The notes under the pieces were generated by a model that was not told the origin of the DNA, did not search any database, and saw nothing but the letters and a program-made list of their open reading frames with translations. A stretch of DNA of 64,000 bases from Octopus vulgaris. Its lineage: Eukaryota. This document shows positions 17,152 through 62,781 of the stretch, in pieces. Location of the stretch: contig OX597815.1 in NCBI GenBank assembly GCA_951406725.2, positions 37,076,001 through 37,140,000 on the forward strand, read 5' to 3'. Position 1 is the first letter of the stretch, and each line of letters begins with the position of its first letter. The position numbers and the translations under genes were made by a program.

Positions 17152-17867
17152 CTTGCCAAATTCACTGGGTGACCCGCGGTTATTGTAGATGTAATGTAAT
17201 TACTTGGAAAATAATCAATTTCTCGTTAAGATATGTATTATTTTACAGCGAATATAAATGAATGAACTCTGTTTCAGAATGAAAAAAATGTATAAATGAA
17301 TAAACAACAGAAAAATACAAGATATACATACCTGGATATACTAAGTAATTATGAATTTTAAGAAGTTTTATAAATAACAACAATAGAACAACGTTTTCAA
17401 TTTCCACAAAAATATTTTAATTTACATTTTCACAATAATTTGCTGAACTAGAAAGTTTTTCAACTCAACTTTATAAATACTGCAATTTTACATGAAGCAA
17501 ATATATGTATATATACAATATTTTGCAATAGTCTCAAACTGTTATAAGTTATAAACACATATATGAACATGACTGCTTATTATAAGAACTACTTCGGCAC
17601 TGATGACAGGAATTTCGAATTTTCTTTATGTCTAGTATTTTATTTTGATTGGGTATTTTTCTTAATTCATTTACTTCAAAGCTTTTCCAACGTTCTTCCT
17701 TTGTAAATTGTTTTGCTGTCCAATAAAGATATAACGCTTGGTAATTATCTCATGAGAGGATGATGGATCATAGTGATCCGAGACAAGCATACATACATAT
17801 ACATACATACTATATATATATATATTTTTTTTTTCTCTCCCTTTTTCTCTCCTTGTTTTTTCTGTGT

Positions 17868-17908
17868 CCCTTTCTGTAGAAGAGCGTAGGCTCGAAACGT
17901 AAAATACT
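17868..17908 (+). ncRNA. Minimal type I hammerhead-like motif with CUGUAGA core
   Basis: CTTT-CTGTAGA-A-GAGC gtag GCTC-GAA-ACGT-A-AAA. Sister copies at 42295-42332 (-) and 56538-56578 (+). Confidence 0.55.
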
Positions 17909-18036
17909 TTTTTCTATTCCTGAGCGTTATACTAATACATCTGTTTGTTTTGTACACCACCTGTCTTTGTCTTTTGTTTTTTTCGTAAACTCTCCCTATA
18001 TATATATATATATATACATCCCCCCACATATATATG

Positions 18037-18090
<54 letters not shown>

Positions 18091-18149
18091 AATTTACTCT
18101 GAGAAAGGAGATGGTTTCTAACAAAAATACAAAGCTCCATTGTTAGAAT

Positions 18150-28005: not shown

Positions 28006-29163
28006 CTATAGGTCAGTTGTATCTAATATTCGGGTTTTATTGCTGACTCGAGGAAAGAATACCGATCGTTGAGTCATTTCCTTTTCAGATTTGTTTCCAT
28101 GTAACCCACCGAACGCTCGAGTTATTGCTTTCCTAAATTCAGGAATGGACAAGTAAACAAAAAATTTGACAACAAAGTTTAATAAGTAGAGACTCTTGTA
28201 AAGTGGCAGGAGTGACTTATAAGCTTCATTCATATAAGATATTCTTATCTTGATAATCATGTATGGTAAACTGGATAAGAGGTAAAATGTAGCAACAAAA
28301 ATACAGGAAATATTCATGGCAGTATCCATTACAGCGGGAGAAGGTGTCTCAACATGATCAAAAGTGCGGACACTCCATTTTGTTTTAACAGAACCACCTA
28401 TAAAGTTGGCCAGCATTGCATTACCCTGTGCTTCAATCTTTGTTTGTATCATATCAGCAAAGCACCACTTGTAGCACATGCAATTCTTCAACAGATGAAT
28501 TAAAAGGAAGACACAAGAAACTATCCATGGAAAGATGAAAGAAAAAAAGAGTTCAATTTTCTTCAAGAGTTGTATTTGTGCTTCATTTTCTGGTAAAATT
28601 GTACATCGAAGCGGATTATCTACGACACCGTGTGTCCAGGTGACATAGAGGAAACCAACACCAGCAAATATTGCTATCATTAAAATAATGAACTTAGCTT
28701 GTAAAACACTTTCAAAACGCCGTTTCAAACCTTGCGAATACATTTTCGAAGACCTCTGCATAATCATCAGAGTCATATACCAGCAAGAGAGGAATCTAGA
28801 ATAATGGGAAAGGTACAAAACAAGCTGACAAATCCCCATAGTCGTAAAGAAGCCGATGCCATATTTGGAAAGCCATGGTATGATTACGGTAAAAAGGTAA
28901 AAGTTATCCATAATCCCTATAGCAATAAGATAGTGACTTACGGACAACTTATTGAGTTCTGTGTTGAGAAAAACTGTTACCGAAATCGAATTGAGCAACA
29001 AACCGAGGGATGAAAATGTGGGTTTATAGTAAGCATCTAACATATCTACCAACTCCAAAGAAGACTCAATATTTTCTGATAGCTTTGGAACTTTTCTGGT
29101 GAAGGAATAATCATTTGTCTTAGAAATATTGAAATCCATTTTGCTCATATAAACATTCTCCAT
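28006..29163 (-). CDS. Class A 7TM GPCR, peptide-receptor-like (FMRFamide/sex-peptide/GPR139-142-like group), single coding exon
   Basis: 385-aa ORF with seven hydrophobic segments. TM1 GLLLN, TM2 LIAIGIMD, Cys at the top of TM3 (GICQ) and in ECL2 (LRCTI). TM3 ends QRS at the DRY position, TM5 FIFP, TM6 FYLLSSLP, TM7 LNFVVKFFVY. N-terminal N-glycosylation sequon NIS. Start context AAG-ATG-G. Confidence 0.93.
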   Translation of the reverse strand: MENVYMSKMDFNISKTNDYSFTRKVPKLSENIESSLELVDMLDAYYKPTFSSLGLLLNSISVTVFLNTELNKLSVSHYLIAIGIMDNFYLFTVIIPWLSKYGIGFFTTMGICQLVLYLSHYSRFLSCWYMTLMIMQRSSKMYSQGLKRRFESVLQAKFIILMIAIFAGVGFLYVTWTHGVVDNPLRCTILPENEAQIQLLKKIELFFSFIFPWIVSCVFLLIHLLKNCMCYKWCFADMIQTKIEAQGNAMLANFIGGSVKTKWSVRTFDHVETPSPAVMDTAMNISCIFVATFYLLSSLPYMIIKIRISYMNEAYKSLLPLYKSLYLLNFVVKFFVYLSIPEFRKAITRAFGGLHGNKSEKEMTQRSVFFPRVSNKTRILDTTDL

Positions 29164-29246
29164 CTTCAGTGCGCAGGTGGTAAATTTTGCGTACAGTTCT
29201 TATGCTTTCTGTTTGTGAAGCACTTGTGAAAACAAAGCGAAGCCGG

Positions 29247-32780: not shown

Positions 32781-32918
32781 TATATATATATCATATATAT
32801 ATATATATGTATATATATATTATGTATATATATATATATATACATACATATGCATACATATATATGTATACACACAGACATGATTTCGCGTAGCCATAGC
32901 GAAATCTATCTATCATTC

Positions 32919-32953
<35 letters not shown>

Positions 32954-33869
32954 AGAGTTTACGAAAAAAACAAAAGACGAAGACAGGTGGTGTACAAAAC
33001 AAACAGATGTATAACGCTCAGGAATAGAAAAAGTATTTTACGTTTCGAATACATTATAAATACAGAGATGGCGTAGCTGGAGGAATAGTGCAAAGGAAGT
33101 AGTAACATTAGTACTAATAATTATGGCTACGTTGAATGTGGTGTAAAAATTTAGACGCCAATATGAGAAGGTAAGATGGTAAAAGAAACAATGATAAAAA
33201 AAAAAACGATAAGGAAAAGAAAATATTAATAAATAAGATGATACAAGTGAAGAAAACGATAATGAGGAAAAAAAACGCATTAAGAACGAGATGATAGTAG
33301 TGAAGAAAACGGTAGTATGACATATTGAAAAATATAAGATATTGTAAGATAAAAAATGAAGATAAAACAGCAACATCAAAAATAGGAAGATAAAAAATAT
33401 TTTGTATAAATAGCTGTACTGTGTTAAAGTGATGAGTAAAATGACAATGTGAAAAGAGAGGCTGGCTATATTAGAGTGAGTTATAATGTTTAAAGGTTGA
33501 GAGAAAGTTAGAAGGATCTTGTAGGATTCAGCAGGTAGGAAAGGGGAGAATTGTGTTGCTGGGGTGCAGCGTGTTAATATTGTAGTTTATGACAGAAGGT
33601 ATAAAAAACGAGAGACGACAAAATAGTTTATCTATAAAATTCTACCTGTCTAAGCACTTTGTTTTATTTTTTTTTATTTTTCAGTATACGTGTTACATGG
33701 AAACATACATACACATGCATGCACACATATGCACGCTCGCGCATACGCACTGCACACAAACACGCACGCGTATGCACAAATAGACATACAAGCACACGCA
33801 TATATATATATATCACATGCATATATATATATCACATGCATATATACATGTGTGTGTATGTTCTCTTTT

Positions 33870-41495: not shown

Positions 41496-41554
<59 letters not shown>

Positions 41555-41555
<1 letters not shown>

Positions 41556-41760
41556 ATCTGTAAAATAATATGTGATAATTATTCGGTAGCCAAGATAAAA
41601 CTCTGAATTTCGGATGCCGAGGTGGAAATCCACACCAACCACCTCTTCGGTTATCTGGCCAGACAACGAAAAGATGGTGGTGTGGATTTCCACCTCGGCA
41701 TCCGAAACTCAGAGTTTTATCTTGGCTACCGAATAATTATCACATATTATTTTACAGATA
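41555..41760. repeat. 206-bp spacer-less palindrome
   Basis: Centre TCTGG|CCAGA at 41658/41659 with nearly identical arms. The two opposite-strand ORFs share VDFHLGIRNSEFYLGYRIIITYYFTD. Confidence 0.93.
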
Positions 41761-42091
41761 AATTCTTCTATATACATAATATTGAGATCTCTTTCTTTCT
41801 GTTGTTATCTTACCGTTTTTACCAATATATATATATACATACATACATACATACATACATACATACATACATACATACATACATACAAACATATATATAT
41901 ATATATATATATATAACATACAAAGGAGTGAAAAAACTACAGAAGGCTTGTGTTATAAGGTTAAAGAATATATTTAAGTAGTTATGTTAGAAAAATGTAA
42001 TAACATTTTTTGTATAGTAACATAGTTTTTGGAGAAATAACCGGTTTTATATTTTCTTTTCAACACCTGCTTTCACACACCAACATTCTCA

Positions 42092-42205
<114 letters not shown>

Positions 42206-42381
42206 AGTATTCACAAAAAGAAAAACAAAAGACGAAAACAAGTGGTGCAGAAAACAAACAGTTGTATTAATATAACGCTCGGGAATTGAAAAAGTCTTTA
42301 ACGTTTCGAGCCTACGCTCTTACACAGAAAGAAATAAGGAGAGAAAAATGTGTGTATTGGCTAGTGATCTATCATGGCGAA

Positions 42382-42437
<56 letters not shown>

Positions 42438-42557
42438 TATATATATATATAAAATACGAAAATACATCCAGACAGTTAGGTGATACAAAAAAAGGATAAC
42501 AAAACATCCAGATAGACGATACAAAGAAAACAAGGACGGGTCATTCGGAGTTCTCTA

Positions 42558-42630
42558 TTCCCACTCGAGTTCCAGATTATCTTTGCAATTTCCGCTGGTT
42601 ATACTCGAGATTGTTCCAATCTGGCCAGCC
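42558..42630 (-). ncRNA. Permuted hammerhead-like motif, family A copy 1 (core decayed)
   Basis: GGCTGG-CCAGATT-gga-ACAAT-C-TCGAGT-ataa-CCAGCG-GAA-ATTGC-aaagat-AATCTGG-a-ACTCGA-GTGGGAA. Confidence 0.45.
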
Positions 42631-43149
42631 CTAAGGAATAACAAAGCTAAGAACATGAGATTCTTTGGAAGAAAGCAGCGAATGTATACGAAGTCAAGGA
42701 CAGAAAAAACAGAAAAAACAGCAATTAACAGGACACAACAACAGGTTTCTTTCGACTAAGGAAGAATTAAATTAAGCTGGCGTTTGTGGAGGTAAAGCCT
42801 TACGGCAAGGACATATGATTTAACAGGCACAGGGAGGAATACAGATGCTGCACGGATGGTAGTCGAACCAAGAAAGAAGGGTCAGGCCTAGCCGAACACC
42901 GGTAACGTGGGGAGAGAAGAGAGAGAAGTAGACGCAGAGAGATAGAAGAAATAAGGAGGGGAGAGATTAAATGAAAGAGACACAGTGAAAGAGGAAGTGA
43001 AAGAGGAAGGAAAGTGAGAATGAAATGAAGGCCAGAAAATGATGGAGAGGGGGTACGAAAAAACGAAGAGTGGAATGAACGAAGTGTGAAAGGGCTGATA
43101 GAAAGAAGGAAAGAATGAAAGAATAGAAAGAATAATATAATCATACAAA

Positions 43150-43184
<35 letters not shown>

Positions 43185-43355
43185 CATATAAGAAACCAAA
43201 GTGTACGTAAGCGCTATATTTTATATATAAAAAATACAAAAATGGGACAAGGACGCAAAACATCCAGAGAGTTAGGTGATGCAAAAAAGGGGCAACAAAA
43301 CAACCAGACAGACGATACAAAGAAACCAAGGACGGGTTATTCGGAGTTTTTTTTA

Positions 43356-43428
43356 TCCTTAGTCGAGTTCCAGATTATCTCTGCAATTTCTGCTGGTTAT
43401 ACTCGAGATTGCTCCAATCTGGCCAGTC
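43356..43428 (-). ncRNA. Permuted hammerhead-like motif, family A copy 2
   Basis: GACTGG-CCAGATT-gga-GCAAT-C-TCGAGT-ataa-CCAGCA-GAA-ATTGC-agagat-AATCTGG-a-ACTCGA-CTAAGGA. Confidence 0.5.
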
Positions 43429-43536
43429 CCCTGTTTTCTTCCGTCCTTGTTTTCGTATACATTCGTTACTTCCTCCTGCAAAATAGGGGTAGTTTATCCT
43501 GTTCAGGCTATATTATTAGCATTACCCTGCGTTTGA

Positions 43537-57037: not shown

Positions 57038-57424
57038 AGTGTGGAAGCACTCCGTCGGTTACGACGACGAGGGTTCCGGTTGATCCGAATCAACGGAACA
57101 GCCTGCTCGTGAAATTAACGTGTAAGTGGCTGAGCACTCCACAGACACGTGTACCCTTAACGTAGTTCTCGGGGATATTCAGCGTGACACAAAGAGTGAC
57201 AAGGCCGGCCCTTTGAAATACAGGTACAACAGAAACAGGAAGGAAGAGTGAGAGAAAGTTGTGGTGAAAGAGTACAGCAGGGATCACCACCATCCCCTGC
57301 CGGAGCCTCGTGGAGCTTTAGGTGTTTTCGCTCAATAAACACTCACAACGCCCGGTCTGGGAATCGAGACCGCGATCCTATGACCGCGAGTCCGCTGCCC
57401 TAACCACTGGGCCATTGCGCCTCC
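57038..57424 (-). mobile_element. S1 tRNA-derived SINE, full length and young
   Basis: Head GGAGGCGCAATGGCCCAGTGGTTAGGGCAGCGG...TCGATTCC. Nearly identical to 62374-62762. Confidence 0.9.
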
Positions 57425-57559
57425 AGAGGCAGATAATGTTTGTATTATCAAAAGTTGAACTGAAATGAGGTTTGTTACTGAAAATTATAATGATGATGAT
57501 GATAGTGGTGTGTTGATAGTGCAAAGTATTTTTTATTGAACTAATTTATTTTATAGCGA

Positions 57560-58238: not shown

Positions 58239-58319
<81 letters not shown>

Positions 58320-58397
58320 AATACAAAATGGAACAATAACGTAAAACATTCAAAAAGACGATACAAAAAACACGGACGGGTCATTCGAAGGCTCTAA

Positions 58398-58448
58398 TCT
58401 TCAGTCAAGAACCGGATCATCCTCGCAATTTCGGCTGATTAATCTTGA
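58398..58448 (-). ncRNA. Permuted hammerhead-like motif, family A copy 3 (intact CUGAAGA, starts at predicted cleavage site)
   Basis: TCAAGA-ttaa-TCAGCC-GAA-ATTGC-gaggat-GATCCGG-t-TCTTGA-CTGAAGA. Confidence 0.55.
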
Positions 58449-58821
58449 TACATATATATCACCGTCATCTCCCATCTCCATTTCTTGTTTCAAGCCGATC
58501 ACCAAGGCGACTGGTTGTGTTTCTTTCAACTCCCACTTTCTACACGCTTTGCTGTCTCTCGTCTCTCTGCTTCTAATCCTTTAGGATATTCCTCGTAGCG
58601 GTAACCATATTTTCGCCTGGCCCTAACGCTTTATTTTGTTTATTTATCTTATATATTGTTCGTAAGTCCACATTTCATCTTGTTTGTTTTCATCTTTATC
58701 CCTTGTCTGTCCACTATTCGTCTCGTCTTGATTATTATTTCATTTGTATACTGTATATTGCATATGCATTTTCACTTTCGGTCATATTTGGTCGCTTGTT
58801 CGGTGATTCACTACACCTCCC

Positions 58822-62158: not shown

Positions 62159-62781
62159 ATAGGGTGGCCCAAAAGTAGGTTTACAGTTATTCAACTATCT
62201 CTGTCGCATTCATATAATAATAATTTAGAACTTAATTATAAAAAATATGAATCCATTATTCTATGCTAATTTAGTTGATTTTTCCGTCTGTAAGATAGAA
62301 ATTTAAATGTAATAAAATGTTTCAAAAGAAATTTAAAGTGCCTAAGTGATAACTGTAAACCTACTTTTGGTCCTTATGGGTTATGGAAGCACTCCGTCGG
62401 TTACGACGACGAGGGTTCCGGTTGATCCGAATCAACGGAACAGCCTGCTCGTGAAATTAACGTGTAAGTGGCTGAGCACTCCACAGACACGTGTAACCTT
62501 AACGTAGTTCTCGGGGAGATTCAGCGTGACACAGAGAGTGACAAGGCCGGCCCTTTGAAATACAGGTACAACAGAAACAGGAAGTAAGAGAAAGTTGTGG
62601 TGAAAGAGTACAGCAGGGTTCACCACCAACCACTGCCGGAGCCTCGTGGAGCTTTAGGTGTTTTCGCTCAATAAACACTCACAACGCCCGGTCTGGGAAT
62701 CGAAACCGCGATCCTATGACCGCGAGTCCGCTGCCCTAACCACTGGGCCATTGCGCCTCCACACTTTTGGTCCACCTGCAT
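62159..62781. mobile_element. Tc1/mariner-type MITE whose right TIR is interrupted by a SINE
   Basis: Left TIR AGGGTGGCCCAAAAGTAGGTTTACAGTTAT. Right TIR ATAACTGTAAACCTACTTTTGGTCC|SINE|ACCTG. Confidence 0.85.
62374..62762 (-). mobile_element. S1 SINE, full length, 11-bp TSD
   Basis: TSD ACTTTTGGTCC at 62363-62373 and 62763-62773. Confidence 0.92.

Follow-up and report, generated by a model that had tools for sequence, protein, structure and literature searches.

Excess of 5' ends at the predicted cut of an open-core hammerhead motif in a non-coding Penelope-like repeat of Octopus vulgaris

On the minus strand of a 64,000-nucleotide stretch of Octopus vulgaris DNA (contig OX597815.1, positions 37,076,001 to 37,140,000, hereafter the window), a copy of a dispersed repeat begins exactly at the base predicted to be nucleotide 1.1 of a hammerhead ribozyme. 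Does this start record an RNA that had cut itself before being reverse-transcribed, or is it one truncation among many? The first-pass annotation favored the former, which would be genomic evidence for cleavage in vivo, and added that a single case could be chance. The question was addressed with genome-wide counts on the 2.8-Gb assembly (227 contigs).

The truncated copy and its family

The copy (58321 to 58448, minus strand) is a 5'-truncated piece, +1 to +128, of a non-coding Penelope-like repeat; its 128 nt run from TCAAGA to a TA/CA microsatellite. Positions are numbered from the T of TCAAGA (+1, at 58448). Read on the minus strand, the junction is ...GGTG ATATATATGTA | TCAAGATTAATCAGCC GAAA TTGC... 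The letters confirm that the copy starts right after TA-rich DNA, as had been noted, the tract being only 11 nt long (58449 to 58459), and the junction can be placed only to within one base, because the T may belong to the TA flank. The 3' end, at which the element is primed, is the TA/CA microsatellite at 58239 to 58320. Positions 58459 to 58451 may be a 9-nt target duplication of 58246 to 58238, indistinguishable within the microsatellite; neither an empty allele nor a target duplication was seen for this copy in four contig sets. In two public runs, contigs pass from the flank into the element for 28 letters (run X15, which may be the source sample) and 19 letters (X16), where a firm bridge takes 31. 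No sign of an assembly artefact was visible at the junction. A pair of 384-nt repeats, 96% identical and 5 kb apart, flanks the copy (57042 to 57425 and 62384 to 62761).

An 18-nt word of this family (family A), at +6 to +23, occurs 4733 times in the genome. Family copies have a common 3' end, the TA tract, and a variable 5' end. The unit measures about 850 nt in mapped loci, 798 nt in the window and about 720 to 830 nt in arrays, that is, 720 to 860 nt overall, which leaves no room for a Penelope ORF; the family would therefore be non-autonomous. Partial tandems, inverted (head-to-head) 5'-truncated copies, a tail of 30 to 40 nt and microsatellite targets are all found in it; partial tandems, inverted pieces and a 30 to 40 nt tail are the insertion pattern described for Penelope-like elements (PMC8557442). 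Among 30 loci mapped, the upstream units of partial tandems start at scattered positions, and only one direct upstream unit (L172, at +4) starts within +1 to +17 beside a TA flank. Head-to-tail arrays of five and eight units (of about 723 and 830 nt; G000:C1:79499414-79502351 and G000:C6:85539831-85545516) were also seen, a pattern expected from rolling reverse transcription of a circle. Elsewhere (L115, L134, L209/L210 and L293), two short copies lie head to head near the predicted cut, and some of these fold-back pairs are joined via stem I complementarity. Pieces of a Penelope-type reverse transcriptase (RT) gene (L211:1-1100 and L233:1580-2000) were considered as the autonomous partner and rejected: TA tracts separate them from the family copies, and they are probably independent insertions into the same target.

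Two further copies in the window belong to an older subfamily with worn cores. They form a partial tandem insertion (42451 to 43430, minus strand) made of a copy starting from -24 (+1 at 43406), the body, and a second copy (+1 at 42608), with a unit of 798 nt; a short inverted piece of the same element (43431 to 43465, plus strand, by eye) is joined to its 5' end. Both copies do continue upstream with (G/A)CAATC, as first described (GCAATC and ACAATC). Since they lie in one insertion, they are not independent. The window also holds a palindromic 250-nt insertion in TA repeats (41532 to 41782), a head-to-head pair of a different repeat in the inverted style of Penelope-like elements. By eye, another dispersed repeat that ends in TA tracts and carries a CGAAAC word past a short stem (17842 to 18096, 32825 to 33048 and 42108 to 42348) resembles the minimal hammerheads of Penelope elements. 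Finally, a 397-codon open frame (about 28009 to 29199, minus strand) gives, from its translation, the impression of a seven-helix receptor.

Helices and wiring of the hammerhead motif

In full copies, the parts of the motif follow one another in the order stem II strand (-23 to -18), x (-17 to -11), stem III strand with AUC, and predicted cut; then come stem I (+1 to +6), stem II (+11 to +16), GAAA, stem III, x' (+31 to +37), the stem I partner and CUGAnGA. The copy at 58448 retains what lies past the predicted cut, all on the minus strand. It has the stem I strand TCAAGA (+1 to +6, 58443 to 58448), the stem II strand preceding GAAA (+11 to +16, 58433 to 58438), and GAAA (G12 to A15.1) with the stem III strand TTGC (+17 to +24, 58425 to 58432); the stem II and stem III partners (-23 to -18 and -6 to -2) are absent from the copy. 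The 3' strand of the extra helix x, which links stems I and II at their far ends, is at +31 to +37 (58412 to 58418). It is followed by the stem I partner TCTTGA and the core CTGAAGA (C3 to A9; 58398 to 58410), with no stem II strand after it.

Pairing was tested on 27 diverse copies, taken from 32 representatives of 108 distinct ones after the exclusion of five with indels or broken ends. Overall, 93% of the helix cells were paired (89 to 99% in stems I, II and III), compared to at most 47% in slid controls. Double changes affected 5 of the 24 pairs in these 27 related rows: three in stem I, two in x, and none in stems II and III. The A15.1-U16.1 pair was present in 27 of 27 rows, and GAAA stands between stems II and III. 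In every subfamily, the core word CUGAnGA directly follows the stem I partner (CTGAAGA, CTGATGA or CTGAGGA). The cut triplet is AUC in family A and AUA in one subfamily; in one viroid context, AUC gave good cutting after folding and poor cutting during transcription (PMC1636495).

With one strand of stem II at the 5' end (-23 to -18), the break in the chain falls between A9 and G10.1, where the paper on hammerhead permutations takes an opening as impossible (PMC10085705). All six permutations described link A9 to stem II with an insert of 0 to 2 nt, and natural hammerheads tolerate a single additional nucleotide there (PMC3705267, PMC4209133). In family A, no pairing was found at offset 0 to 1 after CUGAnGA, and this link is missing; at offset 5, a 4-bp GGCU is confined to the young subfamilies. 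A topology scan for the wiring gave 0 matches in shuffled loci, an Rfam scan of the 64-kb window gave no match at gathering score, and no hammerhead core was seen by eye on the opposite strand. An HDV-like or other ribozyme cutting at +10 to +13 was also considered by eye and discarded: a P1-P4 pattern could not be fitted, and stem I shows covariation at +1.

The same open-core wiring was found in a second family of unrelated sequence, family Y, which was met in the flanks of family A loci (L017, L047, L205, L269 and L337). By eye, its helices have different letters throughout from those of family A. Its cut triplets are GUU, GUC and GUA, and a weak G-rich alternative partner for stem II lies directly after the core.

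Distribution of 5' ends

For the analysis of 5' ends, copies lacking the four G at -24 to -21 were selected and their ends were then read. This filter loses some truncated copies (two of nine passed in one sample), a loss assumed to be independent of end position, so that the counts are lower bounds. Automated calls upstream of about -125 are unreliable, owing to changes in microsatellite length, and were left out; internal deletions, intact length variants, duplicates and unrelated rows were dropped before counting.

Exact counts on the whole genome, in which filter and anchor were kept identical, gave 157 copies beginning at +1 and 35 at -3/-4, and 99 of 100 of the +1 rows among the matches listed were truncations. 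In a simulation with uniform ends on TA flanks, about half as many ends are expected at +1 as at -3/-4, that is, about 18 compared to the 157 observed (expected share of +1 versus -3/-4, 0.336; P about 1e-42). Roughly nine in ten of the +1 ends are thus in excess.

This excess was placed within the wider distribution by means of several anchors. With an anchor at +17, in young subfamilies, 84 of 95 ends fell in +1 to +17 and 11 in -20 to -1 (among 100 of 1350 matches listed; 30 rows by script and 70 by eye, 5 dropped), a density per base about nine times higher after the predicted cut. The modal end in these listed matches was +10 (20 of 95), above +1 (11 of 95). An anchor at +26, read by script, gave 63 ends in +1 to +17, 11 in -20 to -1 and 8 in +19 to +26 (82 of 299 matches). 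With an anchor at +6, read by eye among 100 of 682 matches listed (4 of the 100 rows dropped), ends numbered 28 at +1, 2 at +2, 11 at +3, 8 at +4, 3 at +5 and 24 in -20 to -1. Once the 20 rows at +6 were excluded, +1 accounted for 28 of the 76 ends in -20 to +5 among these matches, for a null share of 0.057, and the four bases after the predicted cut collected 49 ends compared to 9 for the four bases before it. As a control further downstream, an anchor at +60, read by eye (7 rows dropped, 4 ambiguous), gave 52 ends in +1 to +17, 30 in +18 to +59 and 7 to 11 upstream, +1 to +17 being four times denser than the region beyond. In an unselected sample, 7 of the 29 copies reaching +26 ended in +1 to +17, and about three quarters ran through +1.

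The profile is therefore a step at +1 with a tail rather than a single peak, because most ends lie 5 to 16 nt past the predicted cut, at TA-like microhomologies. The first-pass annotation had expected a peak of family 5' ends at nucleotide 1.1 if the RNA is cut there, and an even distribution, with no enrichment at the UH site, if it is not. Even ends were not found, and the excess at +1 is as expected; the shape differs, +10 being the commonest end. The copy at 58448, taken alone, is ordinary and not more than chance would give, as had been cautioned, since 11 of the 95 truncated copies with ends in -20 to +17 share its start. The family as a whole is clearly above chance. At some +1 junctions (L251/L252, L257), bits of +1 to +25 were copied again, as expected at the end of a template. 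Duplications of +1 to +12 or +1 to +25 were noticed at other 5' junctions as well, including G000:C15:43106589 and several +1 rows, as if the RT had jumped back from the template end.

In family Y, two samples read by eye gave 69 ends in +1 to +15 compared to 9 to 10 in -20 to -1, and 84 compared to 5 to 7 (21 rows dropped and 1 ambiguous in the first sample, 9 and 2 in the second). The local step was borderline (17 ends in +1 to +5 compared to 5 to 8 in -5 to -1, P = 0.008 to 0.054), and the exact spike at +1 was not replicated, with 3 clean cases among 153 ends in +1 to +15. The older subfamily had 57 ends after and 27 before the predicted cut (16 rows dropped), and +1 to +16 was 2.6 times denser; here too the +1 spike was not replicated (6 of 84 ends), and the local step was not significant (12 versus 9, P = 0.40). 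As evidence for cleavage in vivo, the +1 excess of young family A thus stands, but it is indirect, and the spike itself is found neither in the second family nor in the older subfamily.

Several explanations of these ends other than self-cleavage were weighed. The template might end at +1 because transcription starts there, from a promoter in the repeat, or because a protein nuclease cuts there, the hammerhead being inactive or incidental. Either would leave the same footprint, as genome data cannot separate a 5'-OH from a capped end, and the starts of Penelope and Chlamys are indeed placed within the pLTR (PMC8557442). However, the step coincides with the base that hammerhead numbering had predicted in advance, the offset between pile-up and predicted cut is kept in family Y despite its unrelated sequence, and many copies extend upstream past +1; we consider this explanation rather unlikely. 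That the RT stalled or fell off at an RNA structure, with no cut, is unlikely too. The structures concerned would be stem II (+11 to +16), which most ends overlap or directly follow in both families, or a 6-bp hairpin at -14 to +1, which ends on base +1 and which some subfamilies are predicted to form (-2.7 to -4.5 kcal/mol). The middle pair of this hairpin varies among subfamilies (T/A, C/A and C/G; 43420 to 43406 and 42622 to 42608 in the window), T/A and C/G being a covariation. A stall predicts more +1 ends where the hairpin is strong, yet the opposite was observed: 8 ends for 249 continuing copies with the strongest hairpin (3.2 per 100), and 67 for 600 in the subfamily where it is mostly broken (9 to 11 per 100; broken in 73 of 100 rows among the matches listed). 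This contrast was significant, although it concerns two lineages only (Fisher P = 0.0003, or 0.005 without the CTAAG rows). Moreover, stems I and x, which the RT meets first, have no comparable pile-up (18 ends in +26 to +59), and about two thirds of the ends in +1 to +17 lie at +1 to +11, by which point stem II is largely copied. The contrast between the two lineages is compatible with a hairpin that competes with the ribozyme fold and could so tune cutting.

Resemblance to the target is largely refuted as a sufficient cause. Ends would then collect where the element looks like (TA)n (TTAAT at +6 to +11, T at +1), and the start at 58448 would be chance. TA repeats do make up most flanks, and peaks occur at the TA-like +6, +8, +10 and +13, and at TTA in family Y. 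But the microhomology at +1 is a single base, and -3/-4 offers a better match (AT, AAT) with 35 ends compared to 157; similarly, the best upstream TA microhomology, a 4-nt TATA at about -79, collected just 11 ends for 660 continuing copies (1.7 per 100). We therefore find it very improbable that microhomology alone is responsible. Still more improbable, in our view, is descent of many +1 copies from one or a few short masters starting at +1, which would overstate the number of independent events. Flanking promoters could transcribe short copies, and segmental duplicates exist; against this, 30 loci with a +1 start span at least five subfamilies, judged from downstream letters, and differ in their flanks and junction letters.

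Proposed mechanism and known systems

We think it likely that the copy at 58448 is the reverse transcript of an RNA already self-cleaved at its hammerhead. Transcripts would fold into a pseudoknotted hammerhead (stem II, x, stem III-AUC, cut, stem I, stem II-GAAA-stem III, x', stem I-CUGAAGA), and self-cleavage would take place just 3' of AUC. A borrowed endonuclease/RT of the Penelope type, possibly that of a Naiad, would nick (TA)n DNA, and reverse transcription would start internally on the RNA, at the UA tract that lies some 130 nt 3' of the cut; internal RT starts have been shown for an element of Anolis (PMC11167929). On a cut template, the RT would run off at +1. In the +1 class, to which the copy at 58448 would belong, the cDNA end would be joined flush to the target, and in the +6 to +17 class a TA-like microhomology 5 to 16 nt inside would anneal, the overhang being lost; such joining was postulated for R2 (PMC3774820). 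Copies running through +1 would derive from uncut, re-ligated or circular RNA. From the genomic footprint we infer cleavage at +1, and the genome-wide excess of ends supports the original suggestion that the 5' end at 58448 fits a self-cleaved RNA copied to its end into (TA)n.

The wider claim, to which we give a little better than an even chance, is that a hammerhead with its chain opened between A9 and G10.1, a topology that none of the six published permutations has, functions in the animal germ line and sets the template end of a Penelope-type element, that thousands of insertions have recorded it, and that cutting varies with the competing hairpin. If this is true, Naiads, which were reported to lack a ribozyme, would be supplied with one, and the footprint would be the first genome-scale read-out in vivo of hammerhead cleavage in Penelope-like transposition, where the role of hammerheads was described as unclear (PMC8557442). 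The excess of insertions at +1 suggests that cut RNA is likely a real template in vivo, and it names the bond and the subfamilies concerned; the same footprint is the best indirect sign that the open-core topology works. We found no report in the open literature of such a footprint in Penelope-like elements, or of the open-core topology. R2 already illustrates the logic, and the type of element is familiar from retrozymes and non-autonomous Penelope-like elements.

In R2, self-cleavage sets the 5' end of the RT template; the 5' junctions match the position of the ribozyme cut, and where this cut coincides with the end of the element, chance microhomology makes them variable (Eickbush, Burke and Eickbush 2013, PMC3774820). 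R2, however, is autonomous and site-specific, with an HDV-like ribozyme at its 5' end, whereas family A is a non-coding, (TA)n-targeting repeat whose predicted hammerhead lies about 130 nt from the priming end. Type-SGC hammerheads (Eckert et al. 2023, PMC10085705) share with family A the order of blocks S, G and C, the short linker between stems I and II, and the extra helix between these stems. Their block C (stem I, CUGAnGA, stem II) is uninterrupted, whereas that of family A is split between A9 and G10.1 and has its stem II strand upstream of block S, so the motif works like an SGC form and is not a member of the type. That paper reports SGC forms from metatranscriptomes and from no genome of a known organism.

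Retrozymes and non-autonomous Penelope-like elements (animal non-LTR retrozymes: Cervera and de la Pena 2020, PMC7229834; Li, Clavereau and Pollet 2026, 10.64898/2026.07.22.740005) are likewise non-coding hammerhead units, both dispersed and in head-to-tail arrays. Each of their units carries a type I hammerhead and is mostly 150 to 450 nt long; family A, read here from its genomic DNA copies, has units of 720 to 860 nt with a pseudoknotted, open-core motif. Octopus Naiads share the preference for (TA)n (Craig et al. 2021, PMC8557442). An autonomous Naiad has an ORF with an N-terminal GIY-YIG and an RT in 3.4 to 4.4 kb, unlike family A, which has no ORF and a unit too short for one. In the PMC8557442 supplement, four diagnostic words of family A had 0 matches. 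Naiad_Ovul is marked there 'HHR_half_core', and the record before it, probably Naiad_Obim judging from how the protein file is ordered, shows by eye the wiring of family A at its end.

The one reconstituted system is PAc, the Poseidon element of the lizard Anolis (Frangieh et al. 2024, PMC11167929), in which RT also starts inside the RNA, targets are AT-rich and the repeat contains a hammerhead. For PAc, cleavage was dispensable for insertion in vitro, and no RNA read had either end at the cut; genomic copies of family A, by contrast, cluster at the predicted cut.
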